10,610 nt of DNA from an uncultured Alcaligenaceae bacterium (lineage in GTDB: Bacteria; Planctomycetota; Planctomycetia; Gemmatales; Gemmataceae), in the NCBI GenBank assembly GCA_964588185.1, contig CAZPPD010000123.1, positions 1 through 10,610 of the forward strand, in the 5' to 3' direction. The translations under genes were made by a program, and so were the position numbers. The notes under the pieces were generated by a model. That model did not search any database and was not told the DNA's origin. It worked only from the letters and a program-made list of their open reading frames with translations. How positions within the stretch are numbered: the stretch's first letter is position 1; the number at the start of each line of letters is the position of its first letter. Positions 1 to 9,316 of the stretch are shown one piece after another.

Positions 1-567
1 ATAAAAAGTGGTTGTATTGCTGTCAAACGTCCAGTAGGGAATATATATTCCTTGCAACTTGGTGTTCTCGGCACGGGCATATTTCTTGAGTCCCGACGGA
101 GCGAACCACAGTCCCTTTAACCATTCCCGGAAAGCTTGGAAGGCCCTATCCCTGGGAATCAAAAACGGCAGCAGACTCTTGGGTTGAATCCGCACCTCGT
201 CTCGAGGCTCATCCACCAAGGCACTTCCGCAAAATGGGCATTCACTTGCTGTCACATGGGAATCCACTGTAGTTTCTGCCGCACAAGATTTGCACTTCAT
301 TACCTTCGGTTCAACTTTGGGCTCTTTTTCCGCCAGTTCTCCCAGATAACTTCGGTAATCCAGTTCTTTAATATCTTTTTCGGACTGAGGGATAGGGTTG
401 TTATGGCCACAGTAAGGGCAAGTGATGGATTGCACCGCCGGGTCGAAAACCATTTTCGCCCCGCATTGGTGACAGGGAAATTGCTTCTGGCTGGGAGGAG
501 GTGCATGGAAAGGTTCGATCGGTTCCACAGCAGGGGGAAGTTCCGGAGGCATCCCGTTTGGATCCAT
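1..567 (-). CDS. Double zinc-ribbon protein (YdjG-like), N-terminal 189 aa only; C-terminus lies beyond window start
   Basis: I translated the minus strand from ATG at 567..565. It reads MDPNGMPPELPPAVEPIEPFHAPPPSQKQFPCHQCGAKMVFDPAVQSITCPYCGHNNPIPQSEKDIKELDYRSYLGELAEKEPKVEPKVMKCKSCAAETTVDSHVTASECPFCGSALVDEPRDEVRIQPKSLLPFLIPRDRAFQAFREWLKGLWFAPSGLKKYARAENTKLQGIYIPYWTFDSNTTTFY... with no stop through position 1. There are two CxxC-(17)-CxxC zinc-ribbon motifs. A GAGGA Shine-Dalgarno-like motif sits about 10 nt upstream. The gene is missing from the ORF track because it has no stop in the window. The plus-strand ORF 136..591 and the minus ORF 300..584 are frame shadows of this gene. Confidence 0.6.
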   Translation of the reverse strand, partial: MDPNGMPPELPPAVEPIEPFHAPPPSQKQFPCHQCGAKMVFDPAVQSITCPYCGHNNPIPQSEKDIKELDYRSYLGELAEKEPKVEPKVMKCKSCAAETTVDSHVTASECPFCGSALVDEPRDEVRIQPKSLLPFLIPRDRAFQAFREWLKGLWFAPSGLKKYARAENTKLQGIYIPYWTFDSNTTTFY

Positions 568-599
568 AACAAAATCATCCTCAATGTCTAATCAAGTAG

Positions 600-631
600 G
601 ACAGAACTCCGGTTAACTCCAGTTCCGTCCG
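600..631 (-). other. Imperfect hairpin (9-bp stem with 1 mismatch, 12-nt loop) in the 97-nt spacer between the SPFH gene and the zinc-ribbon gene
   Basis: ggacAgaact (600-609) and agttcCgtcc (622-631) are inverted complements apart from one position. The loop ccggttaactcc contains the palindrome GGTTAACC. No U-tract follows it on either strand. Confidence 0.25.
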
Positions 632-666
632 AAAACCGAAAGAGCTTACATCCAGTAGAGAGTTCA

Positions 667-1785
667 CTATCCCTGAGGAGGAACCGGAGGGGGAGTTGGC
701 GGCGCGGGGGGAAAGATTCCCGCCAGTTCGGGGACTTGTCCGGCTGCCGTCCATTGCACCATACCCTGCCTCCATACCAGGGAGTCCGCTTTAAGTTGTC
801 CGGCTGCAGCTTGTTGCCGAAGCATATCAACCGGATAGGGACCGGTTTGTTTTCCATTGACCACAACGAAGAATGACACCGCCTGGGGAATCGGCGGCGG
901 AGCTTGGGGGCTTGACTGCTGTTGCGGTTGGAAAGCATTTCCCATTTGATTGGCCAATCCAAACCCCATGCCCATGCCCATTCCCCCGGCAGCTAAACCT
1001 CCCGCTCCAGGATTTTTAGCGACATCTGGAATAGCATTGGCCGCCTGATACCGAGTGAAGGTGTTCATGTCACCGATAATTCCCATGGAAGACCTGGTGT
1101 CCAGAGCTTTTTCCACTTCCGGGGGCAACGAAATGTTTTCGACCAGCAGCTTGGTCAGCTCTATGCCGTAGCCGGAAAATTCGGGAGCAATCTGTTTGGT
1201 AACAAACTCGCTGATCTCGTTGTAGTTGCTGGCCAAATCCAATACGGGAATCTTGCTCTCGCCGAGAGCATCGGCAAAACGGGTAACCACCAAATTGCGA
1301 AGTTGGTCCGTTATCTCGTCGGTGGTGAAATGGCTGTCGGTGCCGACTATTTCCTTGACAAACTTGCCGGCATCTTCGACCCGGACGGCGTAGGTCCCAA
1401 AGGCGCGCAAACGAACCGGGCCAAACTCCGGATCCCGCAGCATAAGGGGATTCTTGGTGCCCCATTTCAGGTCGGTGAAATGCCGCATGGAAACGAAGTA
1501 AACGTCGACTTTGAAAGGGCTATTGAATCCATATTTCCATCCATTCAAAGTGGACAAGATCGGCATGTTACTCGTTTCCAACGTGTACATACCCGGCGAG
1601 AAGACATCGGCCAGTTGTCCTTCGTTTATGAAGACCGCCTTTTGGGATTCGCGGACAGTCAGTTTGGCTCCATATTTTATCTCGTTTTGAAAACGCTCAA
1701 ACTTCCAAACCATGGTGTCTGGGGAGTCGTCTGTCCACTCGATAATATCGATGAACTCGCCGCCAAGCTTATCCCAAAATCCCAT
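667..1785 (-). CDS. SPFH/Band-7 family protein (Band_7_1, YdjI-like) with a Gly/Met- and Gln/Pro-rich linker and a C-terminal DUF4339 (GYF-like) domain
   Basis: The track ORF is 667..1863 and starts on TTG. I prefer the internal ATG at 1785, which has an AAGGA Shine-Dalgarno motif 8 nt upstream. That start gives MGFWDKLGGEFIDIIEWTDDSPDTMVWKFERFQNEIKYGAKLTVRESQ..., the typical N-terminus of Band_7_1 / virion-core-protein-like SPFH proteins. The C-terminus NGKQTGPYPVDMLRQQAAAGQLKADSLVWRQGMVQWTAAGQVPEL matches the DUF4339 consensus (G-P..........G.....DTLVW..GM..W..A..V.EL). Stop is TAG at 667-669. Confidence 0.78.
   Translation of the reverse strand: MGFWDKLGGEFIDIIEWTDDSPDTMVWKFERFQNEIKYGAKLTVRESQKAVFINEGQLADVFSPGMYTLETSNMPILSTLNGWKYGFNSPFKVDVYFVSMRHFTDLKWGTKNPLMLRDPEFGPVRLRAFGTYAVRVEDAGKFVKEIVGTDSHFTTDEITDQLRNLVVTRFADALGESKIPVLDLASNYNEISEFVTKQIAPEFSGYGIELTKLLVENISLPPEVEKALDTRSSMGIIGDMNTFTRYQAANAIPDVAKNPGAGGLAAGGMGMGMGFGLANQMGNAFQPQQQSSPQAPPPIPQAVSFFVVVNGKQTGPYPVDMLRQQAAAGQLKADSLVWRQGMVQWTAAGQVPELAGIFPPAPPTPPPVPPQG
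721..879 (-). other. DUF4339/GYF-like small domain at the C-terminus of the SPFH protein
   Basis: Track residues about 329-381: FFVVVNGKQTGPYPVDMLRQQAAAGQLKADSLVWRQGMVQWTAAGQVPEL. It is preceded by a GAGGLAAGGMGMGMGFG / QPQQQSSPQAPPPIPQ low-complexity linker and followed by a PPAPPTPPPVPP tail. Confidence 0.6.
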
Positions 1786-3000: not shown

Positions 3001-6000
3001 CTAGGGATCAGATCCCAAAGCCAAATTCATTGCTTGATGAAGAAGCTTGATTTCATTGTCCAGCTCGGGCAAGATCATTTCCGCCTCGGAGAAGTCGGCA
3101 TCTCTGCCGAATTGTTCCAGTTTCCGAGCGGTGGCAACTAATCCTTTCGCATCGAAAACATCAGCCGCACCCTTTATGGTGTGAGCTCCTCGTTGAACTT
3201 TTTTGGCGTCCTTTTCTGCTAATCCGGCCCAAATCTCATCAAGCTGTTTCTTACATTCCTGCATTAGGGTCGGAACCAATTGTTTCACCGCCTCCATACC
3301 TCCAGGAACCCTTTGCAATGCTGCCTCAAAACTAAATCTGACCTTTGGCAACTCGGCCTCGGGCTGGGAATAGTCTGTTGCACTCGTGTTAGAAACCTCA
3401 GCTTTGATGCCATCTTCGGCGGTATCATCTTTGAATTTGCCACCGAATTGGCCCAGGGTGGCAAACAACTCCTCCTTGTCAAATGGCTTGGCCACATACC
3501 CGTCCATTCCTTTCTGCAAACAATGCTCCCGGTCACCTTTCATGGCGTTGGCAGTCATGGCAATGATGGGAATGTGGTCTCCTGTTTGTTTTTCCCGTTT
3601 CCGGATGGCGGCAGTCGTTTCAAAACCATCCATTTCCGGCATTTGCACGTCCATGAGAATCAGGTCGAATGAATCTCTTTCCAAAGCGATTAATGCCTCC
3701 TTACCATCTTCCACTACAGTCACCTGATGGCCCCGCATTTTCAATATACCTGAAGCCACCTGCTGGTTGACGATGCCATCTTCGGCGAGCAAAATCTTGA
3801 GCGGCTGATCTGAGGTCTGCTTGTCAATTTCGGGCTGGCTGCTGGTTGTTAAACGATTCTGTTCTTTTCCGGAAATACTCAACAGCACATTCAGCAATTC
3901 GGATTGGACCACCGGTTTGGTAAGGCAACGAATAATGCCGAGCTTTTTGCAATGTTCGGCGTGACCTGCCAGGGGGGCTGAGGAGACAAGAACGATAGGG
4001 GTATGGCACATTTTAGGATCTGATCGAACGCGTTCTGTAAAACCAAATCCATCCATTCCCGGCATCATGTGATCCAACAGAATCAAATGGAATGCGTTTT
4101 CACCTTCAATAGCTTTGGCCAACTCCTCCAAACCGCTAACAGGATTGTCCGCGGAAACGGAAAGAATGTGCCAGCTTCTCAGCATCTCCTCGAAGATGCG
4201 CCGGTTGGTGTGGTTGTCGTCGACAATCAGGACCCGCATTCCGGATAACGAAGAGGTATCTGCTCGTTCTTTTTTTCTGTCGTCTGAGAGTACGCCAAAC
4301 TCAGCCGTAAAGTGAAAGGTGGTTCCTTTATCGACTTCGCTTTCGACCCAAATCCGGCCGTTCATCATATGCACCAATTGAGAAGAGATGGCCAGACCTA
4401 ATCCCGTACCTCCGAAACGGCGCGTCGTCGAGGCGTCTGCCTGACCAAAAGCCTCGAAGATCTTTTGTTGTTTGTCGCGGGGAATTCCGATGCCGGTATC
4501 TCTCACGGAGAAATGCAACCGCATTCTATTCCGGTCCAGGGATTCGCGGCAAACATTGATTTCCACCTCGCCTTCGTGGGTAAACTTGATAGCGTTTCCC
4601 ACCAAGTTCACAATTATTTGCCGCAACCTCCCGGGATCACCCAGCAGCGAATCGGGGAGCTCGGGATCGATCCGGCAAGCCATTTCCAGATTCTTTTCCG
4701 CGGCTCGAATCGACAATGTCTGGCCGGTTCTACCCACACAATCGCGAAGGCTGAACTCGATCTCTTCCATTTCCAGTTTACCCGCTTCGATTTTCGACAG
4801 GTCGAGGATGTCATTCAGAAGCTGCAACAAGGAATCTGCCGACTGCTGAATCATCTGCAGATAATCGGATTGCTCACTGGATAGATCAGTGTGAGCCAGC
4901 AATTGGGCCATGCCGATGATGCCGTTCATCGGAGTGCGAATTTCGTGACTCATATTGGCCAAGAAATCACTCTTCGTGCGATTGGCCGACTCGGCAGCTT
5001 CTTTGGCACGCAGAACTTCTCGCTGAGCTTCAACCAACTGTTGGTTGCGCTCTTGCAACTCCCGGGTCCGTTCTGCGACCCGGCCCTCCAAATTGGCATA
5101 GGTGGTTCGCAGCTCTTTAGTCATCTGATTAAATGCCGCCGCCAAGGTGCCAACTTCGTCGTCGCTATTTTCCGGAACGTGGACCTGCAACTGTCCACCA
5201 GCAACGGTTGTTGCCGCTTCGGCCAACTGCCGGATAGGGCTCATCATCCGCCGTACCAGGAAGTACGAAGCGACCAACCCGACAGTAAGGAAACCTGCCT
5301 GGAGAAAAAACATCGTGTTTTGCAGGTGAACTACGGGAGCATAGGCTTCGGCAACATCCATCTTTGCCACCAACCCCCATTTCCGGTATTCAGGTGGATG
5401 ATATTCAACCGGCAGGTAGCGAATGAGGACTTCTTCCCCCATAAAATCGCCGATGTCAAATCCGTCTTTTCCCTGGATGGCCTTTTCGAGGTGGGAAACA
5501 TCTCCAGCAACGAAATCACCCGCCCGGGTAGGGAGCAGAAACTTCACTCCGCCTTTGGCATAAGGGGTGCCGACTATTACCTCTCCTGTTTTTCCCAAGC
5601 CGGTCCGGTCCGAGAGCAGGTCCACTAACGGTTTCATATCCGCAAGCACCATCACCACGCCTAGGGGATTGCCTTCCGCAGAAATTGCCGGAGCCTCCAG
5701 ATAAGCCTGGTAACCGTCCTCAAAGGCTTCCGGAATGCCGAGATGCTCCCGCTTCCTATCTGGATCTACTGCAAATTTCTGTCCAATGTATTCGGGATTG
5801 GTTGCGGCGATGACTTGGTTGTTGAGATCCACAAACCAGATATCCAAAAAACCCTGCGTGCTCTTTTTGGCATCGTTTAAGATGCGTTGTGTCCTTTCCA
5901 AAAAATCCTGTTTGGGAATCTTTCCCATCTTGCGGAGTTCGATCAATTCGCGAAAGCGAGTCCTACTTGCGACCAAGGCAACTCGCTCATGCTCCTGGCG

Positions 6001-6243
6001 AACGAAGGTGAGTAGCCGTGCTTTTCGTTCCATGGCTACTGAGTCGAGGTGATGATTGACTCGCTCCCGCAGGGCATTGCGGGCAAAATAGAAACCGACC
6101 CAACTCAGGGCTTGGGTGATAACCAAGATCACTATGGCTACAAACAACGCTTGTTTGGTAACCAGAGACCTATACCAGGGAGTTTGACCTACCGTAAATT
6201 TGGAGTCATTTGTGGAGGTTGAGGATTGCTCGCGTTGAGTCAT
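3001..6243 (-). CDS. Hybrid sensor histidine kinase: TM1, periplasmic Cache-like sensor (~255 aa), TM2, HAMP, coiled coil, HisKA, HATPase_c, REC, REC, HPt
   Basis: The protein is 1080 aa. TM1 is [23 protein letters not shown] and TM2 is [20 protein letters not shown]. The H-box is [21 protein letters not shown] (His at residue 433). HATPase_c motifs are present: [18 protein letters not shown], and [13 protein letters not shown]1 runs [10 protein letters not shown]...[11 protein letters not shown]...LTKP and REC2 runs KILLAEDG...[13 protein letters not shown]...AMTANA...AKP. The HPt motif is [17 protein letters not shown]. Start is ATG at 6243 with a GGAGGGG Shine-Dalgarno motif 6 nt upstream. 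Stop is TAG at 3001-3003. Confidence 0.92.
3019..3321 (-). other. C-terminal HPt (histidine phosphotransfer) domain of the hybrid kinase
   Basis: Residues about 975-1075 contain the canonical HxxKG motif ([12 protein letters not shown]). It follows two receiver domains, the arrangement of ArcB/BarA/GacS-type unorthodox kinases. Confidence 0.75.
5314..6081 (-). other. Periplasmic sensor domain of the hybrid kinase (between the two TM helices), Cache-like, ligand unknown
   Basis: Residues about 55-310 lie between the two hydrophobic helices. They have mixed alpha/beta character (…[26 protein letters not shown]…[17 protein letters not shown]…[19 protein letters not shown]…) typical of Cache/PDC-type extracytoplasmic sensors. 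Confidence 0.5.
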
Positions 6244-6403: not shown

Positions 6404-8947
6404 TCACTTTTTAGGGTCAGGATCTTTTTTTAACATGGGTTCCGCTTTGCTATCCGGCTGGACTACCGGACCCCACTCATCCAAATTCATTTCTTTGGGA
6501 GCAGGTCCTTTGATGGTACACATTGCCTGGAAGATTTCGTCCGGAATATCAGCCTTGAGGAAACGGACAGATCCATCGGCCATGATTACATACGCTCCTT
6601 TCTTGCCGCCATAGTCTCCGACAAAGGGCTTAATGCTATCCTTCTCGGGAACTCCGCGAACCGTGGCCCCGCCGCCGGCAATCCAAGGAGTCATTCCCAC
6701 CGGATTATCCTGGGGAACTTGAATCATGAAAGCTGTGTTGGCAAGACCCCGGCCTTTGCTGATTTCTTCCAGGCTTACCGGCCGGTCGTAACCAAAGATC
6801 CCTCGCTTGCCTACGGCAGCCGGGTCGTCCAAGCGAAAATCTGCAGCATTGAGACCAACGCCGGCAATGCCGACAAAATGAGTCGCCGCAACATCGGTCG
6901 GCAATCCCGGATAGGATACCCGGCGTGAACTGCTGGGATACCTTGGATCCAGAAACTGCGGAACAATGGTCCGAGCAACCAGCCAATTTTCCTGATCCCG
7001 CCAGGATTTCTTGAAATTAATGCGTTGGTACAAGGTCCGCTGGTCCAGGAAAGGCAATAAGCTTGCCATCCAACTTACCCGATGAATCGGTTCCTTGGCG
7101 AAACGAGAGCCCGCCCCGATGCGCGGAAACGCGGCCTGTGGGAAATGTTTTTCCTCTAACGCCACCGTCCGATTAAACGGCAGTCGTTTGGTGCCAAGAT
7201 CTACCACAGCTTTACCAAGCTGGTGCCGGTGATTTTCCTTGGCGGCAATGGCGAGTTGATTGCGAACGTTGGCGATTAGCAATCTTGTCGCCCGAAGTAA
7301 ATCGCCGTCGCGGTTTTCGTCCAGAATTAAATCAAATGTAAAGGTGACGGTGTTCTCTTGTTGGTCCACTTTAATGCGGGATTTTTTGGGATCGTTGTCG
7401 TCAACCGGATTGGTCTCGGGGAATCCTTCTCCCCCTATCCTGCCGCCGGGAAGAAATGGTGCATTCGGGTCGTTCGGATCCACTTTGGTCTTCTTTTCCG
7501 AAACCACCTCTACTTTGTGGTTAAATGCCTTGTCAAAAAACTCAGCTACATCCGGGGCAACTTCAACTTCCAGGTCTTCCTCGAGCACCCGGGCATTTTG
7601 GTTGGCAAGACCGCCGGAGCAAGCAATTTCGTTGACGTAACGGTATTTTCCCGGTTCCCGTTGGCGAAACGAGGTCCCTAAGATGTCGATGGTGGCAACA
7701 TTCTGTTTCAGGACGTTGGTAACATCCCAAATCCTTCGCAATTGAAATACCGCGTAATCTCCGGCGAAGGGATTGTTTACTTTCAGTCGTGCTTTATCCA
7801 AGTCGGTGGCGGTGCTAAATAGGATGTGGGTCGTTTCTTTCTTTCCGGTTTCCACCTCCTCGAGTTTATCCAGCATCTTTTTCAAGTCCGGATGGATAGT
7901 ACTGTAAAAGGTGGTGCGGGCATCAGGGGCAAGGCGTTTAAATTTGCCTTTGACCTCTAAGAACATGGCCATTGGTTTCTTGTGAGCCACAATCAAAGTT
8001 TGCCGATCATGTAGGCGCAGGAACAAGGGTTCCTTGGGTTGCCGCTGTTGTCCGTATTTCAGATTGGAACGAGCGGCCATGGAGAGTTGGGAAAACTGTT
8101 CCAGCCAGAGGTTATCCTCCGGGATTTGGAAATAGTTTTGGTCGTGAATCTTCTCCTTTACCTCAATCAATCCTAATGCCTTGGCTAACTTATCCTCCTT
8201 AAAAGCGACCGTTGAATGAATGGCATTAAACGCCCACATTGAGTCCTGCCCATACCATTCACCGTGGAGAATTTCGTCAATCGCTTTCAAGGAAAATCCC
8301 AAGCGTTCCCGGAATACATTGTCATCCAAACCGGGTGAGCGAAAGGCGGTTAAGCCCAAATCGCTGGACAGGATATCCTTGAGGTGCAGATGAGCGACGT
8401 GGTGGACGTCGTTTGGAAGTAAATTGGTAAAGGCCTCGAGGTCGGCCTTGCCGAGAACTCGTTCCACAATCTTTTGCTTGCCATTTTCTTGGCCATTGCC
8501 GTTGGTTTGCTTCGTGGTACCGTTGCCGTTGTTTTCCGTGTTATCATTCTGGCCGTAAAGGTTTGGGTTCGTTTTTGGTTTCTTTTTGTTTCCGCCGGAC
8601 ATCATAAAGAAAGCAGCGACGGCCAAAACCACCAAACCGACAGCGCCCAAGCCGATCCCCAGCACCATTTGATTGGACTTTTTGCCTTTTTTCTTCTTGC
8701 CTTTTTTCTTTTTCTTGCCGGAATCCTCATCCTCGAAATCATCCTCATCATCCGGAACCGGTTTTTTCCGTTTTTTGGATTTTGGGGACTCATCCTCGGG
8801 CTTACTATCCGCAGGGTCATCGACAACAAATCGAAACTTGCAGGTCGGGCATTCGACTTTTTTGCCGATCAGTTTGGGATTTTTGATGACGACGCCGGAT
8901 TCGCAACTGGGACAAGATATTTTGAAGCTGTGCCCGGGAATGGCCAT
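6404..8947 (-). CDS. Bitopic membrane protein: N-terminal MJ0042-type zinc ribbon, Lys/Asp/Glu-rich linker, single TM helix, Asn/Gly/Thr-rich linker, ~390-aa unrecognised domain, C-terminal DUF1559 (divergent H-X9-DG) domain
   Basis: The track ORF is 6404..8962 and starts on GTG. I prefer ATG at 8947, which has GGAG 9 nt upstream. The N-terminus MAIPGHSFKISCPSCESGVVIKNPKLIGKKVECPTCKFRFVV fits the MJ0042-family CxxC-(17)-CxxC ribbon. The linker is KKRKKPVPDDEDDFEDEDSGKKKKKGKKKKGKK. The TM helix is MVLGIGLGAVGLVVLAVAAFFMM. The C-terminal ~260 aa match DUF1559 landmarks: SWMASLLPFLDQRTLYQRINFKKSWRDQENW, then YPGLPTDVAATHFVGIAGVG, then GAYVIMADGSVRFLKADIPDEIFQAMCTIKG. In the H-X9-DG motif the conserved His is replaced by Gly, giving G-X9-DG. 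Stop is TGA at 6404-6406. Confidence 0.78.
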   Translation of the reverse strand: MAIPGHSFKISCPSCESGVVIKNPKLIGKKVECPTCKFRFVVDDPADSKPEDESPKSKKRKKPVPDDEDDFEDEDSGKKKKKGKKKKGKKSNQMVLGIGLGAVGLVVLAVAAFFMMSGGNKKKPKTNPNLYGQNDNTENNGNGTTKQTNGNGQENGKQKIVERVLGKADLEAFTNLLPNDVHHVAHLHLKDILSSDLGLTAFRSPGLDDNVFRERLGFSLKAIDEILHGEWYGQDSMWAFNAIHSTVAFKEDKLAKALGLIEVKEKIHDQNYFQIPEDNLWLEQFSQLSMAARSNLKYGQQRQPKEPLFLRLHDRQTLIVAHKKPMAMFLEVKGKFKRLAPDARTTFYSTIHPDLKKMLDKLEEVETGKKETTHILFSTATDLDKARLKVNNPFAGDYAVFQLRRIWDVTNVLKQNVATIDILGTSFRQREPGKYRYVNEIACSGGLANQNARVLEEDLEVEVAPDVAEFFDKAFNHKVEVVSEKKTKVDPNDPNAPFLPGGRIGGEGFPETNPVDDNDPKKSRIKVDQQENTVTFTFDLILDENRDGDLLRATRLLIANVRNQLAIAAKENHRHQLGKAVVDLGTKRLPFNRTVALEEKHFPQAAFPRIGAGSRFAKEPIHRVSWMASLLPFLDQRTLYQRINFKKSWRDQENWLVARTIVPQFLDPRYPSSSRRVSYPGLPTDVAATHFVGIAGVGLNAADFRLDDPAAVGKRGIFGYDRPVSLEEISKGRGLANTAFMIQVPQDNPVGMTPWIAGGGATVRGVPEKDSIKPFVGDYGGKKGAYVIMADGSVRFLKADIPDEIFQAMCTIKGPAPKEMNLDEWGPVVQPDSKAEPMLKKDPDPKK
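6506..7294 (-). other. DUF1559 / H-X9-DG-like domain (Planctomycete pseudopilin-associated domain) without the usual prepilin N-terminus
   Basis: Track residues about 557-819; motifs as given for the CDS. There is no prepilin-type (G/FTLxE) methylation motif anywhere in the protein. Confidence 0.7.
8672..8803 (-). repeat. Low-complexity coding tract encoding a poly-Lys / acidic linker; CT-rich on the plus strand with several T5-T6 homopolymer runs
   Basis: The plus strand reads ...ctttttgccttttttcttcttgccttttttctttttcttgccggaatcctcatcctcgaaatcatcctcatcatccggaaccggttttttccgttttttgg.... It encodes SKPEDESPKSKKRKKPVPDDEDDFEDEDSGKKKKKGKKKKGKKS. Confidence 0.7.
8819..8947 (-). other. MJ0042-family zinc-ribbon (CxxC…CxxC) domain, predicted cytoplasmic
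   Basis: SCPSCESG-(17)-ECPTCKFRF. The second metal-binding knuckle is followed by F-R-F-V-V, as in TIGR02098-type ribbons. Confidence 0.65.
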
Positions 8948-9316
8948 GTAATTACTCTCCACGGAAAAGAAGGGAATCGCAAATGAGAATGAATTATGAT
9001 CCTTATCTTAAACGGGGGAAATAAGATCTGCAACGGGTAGTAATTTTGATTGGAAAAGTAATCAGCGGGAATGAGAAACGGGTATGCAGGATTTCCGTGA
9101 GATGTTTCGCCCTTTCAGGGCTTCTGGGGTGGAAAATGCCATATCCAGGGCGGAGTATCGCGACTATCGCCGCTCCGCTCTGCCCAGGGTATCTGGCCTG
9201 TCTTGTTGTTGGCCCTACCGGGGCGATAAATTCCACAGGTTTAATTTGAACCAGAAGTTCACCCGGGAAATGTTGATATCACTTGGAATTGAAACTGAAA
9301 ATTGGAACTACTGAAT

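Follow-up and report, generated by a model that had tools for sequence, protein, structure and literature searches.

The only studied relative of the gene pair described here is the YdjG/YdjI (SamG/SamI) pair of Bacillus subtilis, which belongs to a membrane-stress module, is known from one phylum and always occurs together with PspA and the TPM protein YdjH (SamH). According to Ravi et al. (2024, PMC11237479), YdjG consists of two zinc ribbons, an uncharacterised central domain, described as related to YpeB/PepSY (NTF2-like), and a C-terminal transmembrane segment. Scholz et al. (2021, PMC8581546) found that YdjG and YdjH are required for bringing YdjI and PspA to the membrane, and in their two-hybrid analysis of the Bacillus system YdjI had YdjH, not YdjG, as its direct partner. 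More recently, SamI was reported to restrain SamGH signalling (Baur et al. 2026, preprint).

Other described systems share single elements with the pair. The RAGNYA fold paper of Balaji & Aravind (2007, PMC2034487) includes "SPFH/Band 7+GYF" among the architectures known from bacteria; it also noted proline-rich stretches beside bacterial GYF domains, proposed these flanking stretches as GYF ligands and pointed out conserved neighbourhoods with adjacent transmembrane proteins. In GltJ of Myxococcus xanthus, a ZnR-linker-GYF switch, zinc ribbon and GYF domain cooperate at the cytoplasmic face of the membrane, and the GYF domain has micromolar affinity for a proline-rich sequence (Attia et al. 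2024, PMC11135422). Stomatin, HflK/C, prohibitin, flotillin and QmcA are cage-forming SPFH proteins, each with a membrane anchor of its own and a long wall of coiled coils.

Here, we describe a pair of genes from a planctomycetal contig that encodes a soluble SPFH-GYF protein followed by a YdjG-like double zinc-ribbon protein.

An SPFH-GYF protein without a membrane anchor

The window, i.e., the whole stretch of DNA analysed, is an entire contig of 10,610 nt. Both genes of the pair are located at its start on the minus strand. The following features were assigned to the first gene and the spacer behind it:

667..1785, minus strand: SPFH-GYF gene encoding a soluble YdjI/SamI-like protein (372 aa, ATG at 1785; from the open reading frame and its translation)
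1078..1710, minus strand: Band_7_1 SPFH domain, residues 26-236 (Pfam PF13421, E 2e-104)
934..1011, minus strand: Gly/Met-rich low-complexity segment, residues ~259-284, PGAGGLAAGGMGMGMGFGLANQMGNA (from sequence)
886..900, minus strand: PPPIP motif, residues 296-300, directly upstream of the GYF domain (from conservation)
724..870, minus strand: GYF_2 (DUF4339) domain, residues 306-354 (Pfam PF14237, E 2e-19; pLDDT 90-96)
679..693, minus strand: C-terminal PPPVP motif, residues 365-369, 3 residues from the C-terminus (from conservation)
568..666, minus strand: spacer of 99 nt between the SPFH-GYF and YdjG-like genes (from sequence)

The predicted protein is identical to the 372-aa NCBI gene call P0142 on the same contig, and the gene lies where an initial sequence-only reading of this DNA had placed it. 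Both Pfam domains proposed there were recovered far above their cut-offs, with 348.2 bits against 24 for Band_7_1, where the match covers profile positions 1-211 of 211, and 69.4 bits against 25.8 for GYF_2, making the protein a member of both families. The SPFH fold was predicted by AlphaFold2 with a mean pLDDT of 80 and values mostly between 85 and 97 in the SPFH core, and a Foldseek search with this model returned stomatin, HflK/C, prohibitin and flotillin chains with a probability of 1.00 and E values from 1e-11 to 1e-6. The fold is thus shared with the cage-forming SPFH proteins, QmcA included, but in place of a membrane anchor and a coiled-coil wall the window protein has no anchor and a disordered linker: no hydrophobic stretch of transmembrane level was found along its length (the maximum 19-residue Kyte-Doolittle mean is 1.04), and AlphaFold2 predicted the Gly/Met/Gln-rich linker following the SPFH region to be disordered.

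The C-terminal anatomy proposed by the sequence-only reading, a Gly/Met-rich segment, a Gln/Pro-rich linker, a GYF domain and a proline tail (PPPVP), is present in full. The Gly/Met-rich segment, with a pLDDT below 50, is kept in all 65 linked homologs (see below) and nearly invariant in alignment A3; the Gln/Pro-rich linker behind it ends in PPPIP. The named closest SPFH relatives share 64-69% identity and come from Planctomycetota/Phycisphaerae; P0143 and P0145 are two of the closest homologs. We also noticed a database homolog of 646 aa (P0187) in which Band_7_1, GYF_2 and TerD (PF02342) are combined in a single protein.

A truncated, YdjG-like zinc-ribbon gene downstream

The 189-codon open frame downstream of the SPFH-GYF gene lies on the same strand and runs off the window, as the initial reading had it. 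Its features are as follows:

1..567, minus strand: 5' part of a YdjG/SamG-like gene that is truncated where the contig ends (189 codons, open frame without a stop)
484..567, minus strand: Pro-rich N-terminal extension, residues 1-28, MDPNGMPPELPPAVEPIEPFHAPPPSQK (from sequence)
409..474, minus strand: zinc ribbon 1, C32/C35...C50/C53 (from cysteine conservation; Pfam ribbon matches below cut-offs)
229..294, minus strand: zinc ribbon 2, C92/C95...C110/C113 (from cysteine conservation; HypA- and Ribosomal_S27e-type matches at or below cut-offs)
1..192, minus strand: first part of the conserved central domain, residues 126-189, with LLPF, W149 and YIPYWTFD (from invariant alignment columns)

A single-sequence search with the 189-aa fragment yielded 21 matches, most of them partial, and a profile of full-length homologs taken from genome contigs was used instead. 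The YdjG-like family is very large, comprising 9,903 clusters at 50% identity (E <= 1e-3). The fragment shares 36-57% identity with full-length homologs of 360-400 aa, and all eight ribbon cysteines are invariant in both alignment A1 (13 sequences, consisting of the window fragment and 12 full-length homologs) and alignment A2 (50 homologs). In the AlphaFold2 model of a full-length homolog with 57% identity to the fragment, the two CxxC pairs of each block form a ribbon of four short strands (block pLDDT 72-89), in agreement with the ribbons proposed from the fragment. Of the expected Pfam matches, the Band_7_1 and DUF4339 assignments stood; the ribbon matches of the fragment in Pfam and NCBIfam stayed at or below the cut-offs, and a YdjG-family match was not obtained: neither Pfam nor NCBIfam holds a curated YdjG-family model, not even one matching B. 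subtilis YdjG itself. Pro-rich N-termini similar to that of the fragment occur in P0028, P0029 and P0050, and in just 18 of 334 family members. The contigs of P0029 and P0050 have the same lengths as those of the SPFH homologs P0143 and P0145.

As the contig cannot be extended, the last ~170-200 aa of the partner, among them the C-terminal transmembrane helix, are missing from the window, and the helix is deduced from homologs. All complete homologs from the 80 loci considered below have one hydrophobic segment, located at the extreme C-terminus, and a helix was placed at 337-359 in the homolog model (pLDDT 90.5). The YdjG-like homologs are therefore predicted to be tail-anchored, cytoplasm-facing proteins with two N-terminal ribbons, a central domain of ~220 aa and one C-terminal helix. 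This central domain would be built from very long beta-hairpins of roughly 30 residues; for the main domain of the family there is neither a Pfam or NCBIfam model nor a solved structural relative. With regard to the window alone, the result is modest, as its YdjG-like gene is a typical, cut-off member of the family.

The pair is conserved across phyla

Neighbourhood conservation across phyla, which the sequence-only reading had anticipated, turned out to be strong and was seen starting from either gene. Of 80 YdjG-like loci, 65 have a full-length SPFH-GYF gene upstream in the same orientation, directly adjacent in 49 of them, and 13 of the 80 loci lack an SPFH gene within 6 kb despite sufficient upstream sequence. 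The linked loci span at least ten phyla and include Fermentibacteria, Desulfobacterota, Armatimonadota, Sumerlaeota, Bacteroidota, Kiritimatiellota, Acidobacteriota and others as well as Alpha-, Beta- and Gammaproteobacteria. Among the culturable carriers are Fulvivirga lutimaris, Zavarzinia sp. and Trichlorobacter/Geobacter strains. Viewed from the SPFH homologs, the next gene encodes a zinc-ribbon protein of 377-383 aa. The pairwise distances of the SPFH proteins and their partners are correlated (r = 0.87, Mantel p <= 0.001). The two-gene pair is thus real and widely conserved. Within the 99-nt spacer of the window no terminator-like site was predicted.

Beside the pair, no third conserved gene was detected in the 80 loci, only lineage-specific neighbours. 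The flanking genes are of housekeeping types, such as genes for NAD synthase, ABC transporters and sigma factors, purD and def. One candidate third partner, family "f7", was rejected because it consisted of artefactual antisense ORFs that overlap the SPFH gene. The genes upstream in the window, encoding a REC-HATPase_c_2 protein and a hybrid histidine kinase, are not conserved in related loci and were likewise dismissed as partners.

Two expectations raised by the sequence-only reading were not supported. The fusion of the SPFH protein to a GYF domain, regarded there as novel, is the rule: GYF_2 is present in all 65 linked SPFH genes and in each of the 120 best database matches, and the same domain combination had been catalogued in 2007. 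The example given by Balaji & Aravind, GI 32472385, is probably itself planctomycetal, as its number falls in the same range as that of the paper's Rhodopirellula GI. What that work describes is the architecture alone; it names neither the YdjG-like partner nor the two PPPxP motifs in particular, nor does it draw the relation to YdjGHI. The second expectation was that a Bacillus-type pair had been transplanted into a Planctomycete, but the closest relatives are themselves planctomycetal. As pairs of the GYF type are the usual form in many Gram-negative phyla, nothing points to an import from Bacillus.

Comparison with the Bacillus PspA-YdjGHI module

For the comparison, the ydjG-ydjH-ydjI locus (L081) was recovered from metagenome contigs via the 24-nt pattern of a published ydjG primer. 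The window fragment shares 31% identity with YdjG (BLASTP, E 1e-24) and the window SPFH protein 27% identity with YdjI (E 7e-35). These identities are low; when the profile of 50 full-length homologs was compared with YdjG, hhalign gave a probability of 99.95% and an E value of 1e-37, the 310 aligned columns beginning at the first ribbon and reaching as far as the transmembrane helix. When the 80 loci were searched by phmmer, B. subtilis YdjG matched the partner gene in all of them and YdjI matched the SPFH gene in 64. The suspected homology to YdjI and YdjG is thereby established for both genes.

The resemblance extends to the layout of the proteins. Both the window SPFH protein and YdjI are Band_7_1 proteins without a membrane anchor and carry a Gly/Met-rich segment after the SPFH domain (MAGMMMGMNMANQMM in YdjI). 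The partner family shares with YdjG the succession of ribbons, central domain and C-terminal transmembrane segment, the window gene itself being cut before its C-terminus, and the region LLPF...YIPYWTFD aligns to VIPF...GMYIPFWMFD of YdjG. The differences are equally clear. The gene order is reversed, with the SPFH gene preceding the YdjG-like gene here and the order G-H-I in Bacillus. The SPFH protein ends in a GYF_2 domain with flanking PPPxP motifs, whereas YdjI instead has a Zn_ribbon_3 domain (residues 302-322). The central domain of the partner has a longer beta-hairpin region, which aligns poorly with YdjG. Furthermore, no match to YdjH (TPM; TPM_phosphatase) was obtained by phmmer in any of the 80 loci and no such gene is present in the window; the same search with B. 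subtilis PspA found no PspA/ESCRT-III-like gene in the 80 loci, and there is none among the other genes of the window. A YdjI/YdjG-like module, as had been suggested, is therefore correct with respect to the homologous pair but not to the Bacillus module as a whole, given that neither YdjH nor PspA is present, the order is reversed and a GYF domain takes the place of the ribbon. The pair is a stripped-down relative of the YdjI/YdjG module and not new in kind.

The GYF domain and its proline-rich flanks

The nearest solved GYF structure is the bacterial-type GYF domain of GltJ/AgmX (7z3c, E 1.2e-8). GltJ combines ribbon and GYF domain in one gliding-motility polypeptide, whereas here the GYF domain resides on the SPFH protein and the ribbons on its partner, and the NCBIfam GltJ model scored 51.6 bits against the window SPFH-GYF protein, compared with a cut-off of 450.

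The proline motifs on both sides of the domain are strongly conserved. In the alignment of 50 homologs, P296, P297 and P298 are invariant and P300 nearly so, while the C-terminal motif has P366 and P369 as invariant positions, with P365 and P367 almost as well conserved; both motifs are present in 46 of the 50, and the pre-GYF motif was found in essentially all 65 linked homologs. The C-terminal proline tail was modelled with a pLDDT of ~81 although it has no secondary structure. Judging from this conservation and the confidence of the tail, the GYF domain most likely binds the flanking PPPxP motifs, either in cis or between neighbouring subunits. PPP[LIM]P-like motifs also occur at the N-termini of some YdjG-like partner proteins, and in some lineages, this one included, the GYF domain may bind the Pro-rich N-terminus of the partner as well.

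Discussion

We consider it probable that this operon-like pair is a minimal relative of YdjG/YdjI (SamG/SamI) operating without PspA and the TPM protein, in which the partner recruits the SPFH scaffold and contacts between GYF domain and prolines aid its assembly. By analogy with Bacillus, the tail-anchored YdjG-like protein would recruit SPFH oligomers and position them at the cytoplasmic membrane, on its inner face. Under envelope stress, the oligomers would there organise or stabilise regions of the membrane, or hold signalling in check. The GYF domain would stand in for the C-terminal zinc ribbon of the Bacillus protein, and GYF-proline contacts would assemble or gate the scaffold. Direct binding between the SPFH and YdjG-like proteins is an extrapolation, because YdjI binds YdjH in Bacillus and YdjH is absent here.

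A functional connection to the TelA/XpaC/TerD ("Ter") stress network, with the scaffold working together with TelA-like proteins encoded nearby or elsewhere in place of a PspA-type function, appears unlikely, and it would be compatible with a YdjG/YdjI-like pair. It draws on 10 of the 80 loci (Methylococcales, Thiotrichales and Rhodobacterales), in which the SPFH gene is directly preceded, in the same orientation, by an XpaC-like gene (PF10112, E 9e-28) together with a TelA gene (PF05816, E 4e-112), and on P0187 with its TerD domain. The B. subtilis sigma-W regulon includes both xpaC-yaaN and pspA-ydjGHI. However, the linkage is restricted to these 10 loci and is seen neither in the window nor in the nearest planctomycetal loci, and P0187 is a single metagenomic gene call that is possibly an artefact.

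The ribbons could also suggest a nucleic-acid-binding transcription regulator of the TFIIB/RpoP type that neighbours the SPFH gene for regulatory and not structural reasons, all the more so as Popp et al. described the YdjG ribbon as a potential DNA-binding domain. The ribbons weakly match those of TFIIB-type proteins, RNA polymerase subunit P and S27e, and the homolog profile of ribbon 2 has a weak match to the Rpo12/P ribbon of RNA polymerase (E 0.004), but none of the TFIIB/RpoP-type matches exceeds its curated cut-off, and they mirror the ribbon fold in general. With a tail anchor in all complete homologs, no helix-turn-helix or other DNA-binding domain in the YdjG-like protein and a Bacillus YdjG that acts as a membrane anchor (PMC8581546), we judge a transcription regulator very improbable. 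An anti-phage or abortive-infection module, made of a zinc-ribbon sensor and an SPFH membrane effector, is the least credible of the explanations considered, and it was rejected on the PADLOC result. Some defence contexts do contain SPFH/Band-7 proteins, and the ribbons of the window fragment have a weak match (E 1.6e-6) to PDC-S64, a candidate-system model of PADLOC; this match is limited to the generic ribbons, however, and the SPFH protein matched no PADLOC model. Moreover, the neighbours are lineage-variable housekeeping genes and not defence islands, and the mean column identity of 52-59% in the alignments of the pair across phyla is unlike that of fast-evolving defence genes.

Beyond the minimal YdjG/YdjI relative that we favour, a more far-reaching interpretation can be put forward only tentatively, and we regard it as rather doubtful. 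According to it, the pair would be an autonomous two-component membrane-surveillance machine that has no need for PspA or TPM proteins and is present in most Gram-negative phyla, the GYF-PPPxP contacts would polymerise or gate the scaffold, the central domain of the partner would have a new fold and serve to sense or shape the membrane, and SamGHI-PspA of Bacillus would be a derived elaboration of this ancestral core.

The conserved core consists of just two genes and provides a testable hypothesis of assembly, namely that the GYF domain binds both invariant PPPxP motifs. If true, this would explain how SPFH proteins that lack an anchor are organised at bacterial membranes, and the work on Bacillus would reach far wider.

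The SPFH-GYF gene and its truncated partner

The YdjI/SamI-like SPFH-GYF protein is encoded on the minus strand, upstream of the 5′ part of a YdjG/SamG-like double zinc-ribbon gene (hereafter the partner), which is cut by the contig end. The features of the window are:

667-1785, minus: SPFH-GYF gene, 372-aa product, N-terminus MGFWDKLGGEFIDIIEW
1-567, minus: partner 5′ fragment, ATG at 567, 189 codons open to the window edge
484-567, minus: proline-rich N-terminus of the partner, MPPELPP...HAPPPS
1946-2854, minus: receiver plus HATPase_c_2 protein (REC-HATPase_c_2), anti-sigma-kinase-like
3001-6243, minus: hybrid histidine kinase, 1080 aa, HAMP-HisKA-HATPase-REC-REC-Hpt
6404-8962, minus: 852-aa protein whose DUF1559 region is C-terminal; it also has a CxxC...CxxC ribbon at the N-terminus, a hydrophobic segment and a stretch rich in Lys, Asp and Glu

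The 372-aa protein is identical to P0142, the NCBI call on the same contig, and the window spans the complete contig, as 10,610 nt is recorded for the contig of P0142, the only one recorded for the identical protein. A longer ORF from a TTG at 1863 was set aside, since the homologs all begin at the equivalent Met and P0142 has 372 aa. Pfam assigned residues 26-236 to Band_7_1 (PF13421; 348 bits over the full-length profile) and residues 306-354 to GYF_2/DUF4339 (PF14237; 69 bits), as the sequence-only reading had proposed, and the Gly/Met-rich segment, Gln/Pro-rich linker, GYF domain and proline tail that it described are all present; its details on both genes were accurate throughout, including the zinc-ribbon frame that runs off the window edge.

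A spacer of 99 nt, in which no terminator was predicted, separates the SPFH-GYF gene from the partner. In the partner fragment, two CxxC...CxxC units precede a conserved domain (LLPF, YIPYWTFD), of which the window covers only the beginning (1-192, minus). Complete homologs of 360-400 aa consist of the two zinc ribbons, a conserved region of ~220 aa (motifs YIPYWTFD, DIGGDxQR, FKHxLLPxW and YRFLxNGxTGEVxGExP) and one hydrophobic segment at the extreme C-terminus. Because the ribbons require a reducing cytoplasm and almost nothing extends beyond the transmembrane helix, we infer that the partner is tail-anchored with its bulk in the cytoplasm. An AlphaFold2 model of the full-length homolog P0045 (57% identical to the window fragment, 50 aligned sequences, pLDDT 90.5) displays both CxxC pairs as ribbons, as had been anticipated, followed by a long hairpin (148-216, two ~30-residue strands), a long helix, more long strands at 284-323 and, at the end, a helix spanning 337-359. 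The very long (~30-residue) beta-hairpins of the central domain are predicted at pLDDT >90. A search for a solved structural relative of this domain returned no convincing one, and models for it are absent from both Pfam and NCBIfam. At 50% identity the family forms 9,903 clusters with E <= 1e-3, 2,550 of them reaching E <= 1e-30.

The two genes are inherited together across phyla

Conserved neighbourhood across phyla, which had been put forward as a test, was found in a sample of 80 genome loci with relatives of the zinc-ribbon fragment (36-52% identity) from at least 10 phyla. In 65/80 loci the partner is preceded on its strand by a full-length SPFH homolog, directly adjacent in 49 of these 65 and with one to a few genes between in the other 16; an SPFH gene is absent from 13 loci with sufficient upstream sequence, and two were too short for judgement. 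Starting reciprocally from SPFH homologs, the next gene was again a zinc-ribbon protein (377-383 aa), and in two protein database searches many SPFH and partner matches were on contigs of equal nucleotide size. The two proteins' pairwise distances are strongly correlated (r = 0.87, Mantel p <= 0.001), showing that they are inherited as a unit; this alone does not demonstrate that they interact physically. Across the 80 loci, no further gene family generally accompanies the pair. In some Bacteroidota loci the YdjG-like gene is present as two tandem paralogs, preceded by a single SPFH-GYF gene in L029 (4730-7074) and L030 (4839-7083), and with no SPFH gene detected in L080 (4119-7065).

In the window, the REC-HATPase_c_2 and hybrid kinase genes precede the SPFH gene on the minus strand, at a distance of 160 nt from its start, and a SurE gene is also present. 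None of these, nor the DUF1559 gene, is conserved beside the pair in the 80 loci and the SPFH-homolog loci. DUF1559 is a planctomycete-typical family.

The domain fusion itself, which had been suggested to be novel, turned out not to be: GYF_2 is present in 65/65 linked SPFH genes, PF13421 and PF14237 occur together in all of the best 120 of at least 8,000 matches in a collection of 5.8 billion proteins, and 'SPFH/Band 7+GYF' has been listed among bacterial GYF architectures since 2007 (Balaji & Aravind, PMC2034487). Transplantation into a Planctomycete was likewise not upheld, the nearest named SPFH homologs among the matches listed being from Phycisphaerae/Planctomycetales MAGs (64-69% identity). 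These homologs and the DUF1559 protein fit a planctomycete origin of the window, from a lineage that lacks near relatives in the databases.

Comparison with the Bacillus PspA-YdjGHI operon

A 24-nt segment of the forward primer published for ydjG led to the B. subtilis locus on two metagenome contigs. Its products (locus L081) are YdjG (341 aa), the TPM-domain protein YdjH (255 aa), and YdjI (323 aa), which combines Band_7_1 with a zinc ribbon. The partner fragment matches YdjG with 31% identity (E 1e-24), and a 50-sequence profile of its family aligns with YdjG over 310 columns from the first ribbon into the transmembrane helix (hhalign 99.95%, E 1e-37), while the window SPFH protein matches YdjI with 27% identity (E 7e-35). 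YdjI also has a Met/Gly-rich, Gln-rich linker after its SPFH domain, and the partner family shares the two ribbons and the transmembrane segment of the architecture published for YdjG, whose remaining domain is described there as YpeB-related (Ravi et al. 2024, PMC11237479). Taken together, these sequence comparisons support well the homology of the pair to YdjI/YdjG that the sequence-only reading had assumed.

As queries across the 80 loci, B. subtilis YdjG matched 80 and YdjI 64, whereas YdjH and PspA matched none. Moreover, the SPFH gene here precedes the partner, the reverse of the Bacillus G-H-I order, and GYF_2 replaces the C-terminal zinc ribbon of YdjI. With these differences and other neighbours, the pair falls outside the PspA-YdjGHI operon system in its Bacillus definition; it is a variant of two genes, whose products are homologous to two of the system's four proteins.

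Proline-rich motifs and the GYF domain

Conservation in the SPFH-GYF homologs covers the entire C-terminal extension and not the GYF domain alone. It consists, in order, of a GMGMGMGFAMANQMG-like segment, a Gln-rich spacer, a PPPxP motif a few residues before the GYF domain and, in the final ~10 residues, another PPPxP; both motifs are present in 46/50 homologs. AlphaFold2 predicts a disordered linker (pLDDT <50); the GYF domain reaches 90-96 and the C-terminal tail ~81, compatible with a tail that may pack on the GYF domain. The closest solved GYF domain is that of GltJ, which binds a proline-rich sequence via a conserved beta-sheet (Attia et al. 2024, PMC11135422). Proline-rich stretches flanking bacterial GYF domains and neighbouring transmembrane proteins were described previously (Balaji & Aravind 2007, PMC2034487).

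Long proline-rich N-termini occur in 18/334 partner proteins, including the window protein, P0028, P0029, P0050, P0312, P0327, P0405, L006 and L071, often with PPP[LIM]P-like motifs resembling those flanking the GYF domain. As inferred from matching contig sizes, P0029 and P0050 are partnered with two SPFH homologs that rank among the closest. These N-termini suggest that, in some lineages, direct tethering of the partner may be a further role of the GYF domain.

Discussion

Beyond the homology and anatomy of the pair, which the comparisons establish, the best-supported reading is that the tail-anchored YdjG-like protein would recruit the SPFH protein, which has no anchor of its own, to the cytoplasmic face of the membrane, that GYF-proline contacts would aid assembly or gating, and that the pair would serve membrane maintenance or stress signalling. 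In Bacillus, YdjG and YdjH recruit YdjI to the membrane, with the caveat for the recruitment reading that the two-hybrid contact of YdjI is YdjH and not YdjG (Scholz et al. 2021, PMC8581546).

A link to the TelA/XpaC/TerD (tellurite-type, Ter) stress network has some support and is compatible with the recruitment reading: in 10/80 loci the SPFH-GYF gene is immediately preceded, in the same orientation, by an XpaC-like (PF10112) and/or TelA (PF05816) gene, most of these loci having both (L022:2673-4830; also L010, L011, L015, L027, L032, L041, L052, L071 and L078), and P0187, one database protein of 646 aa combining Band_7_1, GYF_2 and TerD, hints at the same connection. Little speaks for a defence system, as the zinc ribbons (residues 29-116; window 1-567, minus) give a weak match (E 1.6e-6) to PDC-S64, a candidate model for phage defence in PADLOC, but the SPFH protein matches none of the PADLOC defence models. 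There is similarly little to support a zinc-ribbon partner acting as a transcription factor.

The window pair, rightly recognised as YdjI/YdjG-like, typifies a two-gene variant that is very widespread but uncharacterised, and is truncated here. This locus is of modest interest, while the family as a whole is a reasonable experimental target.
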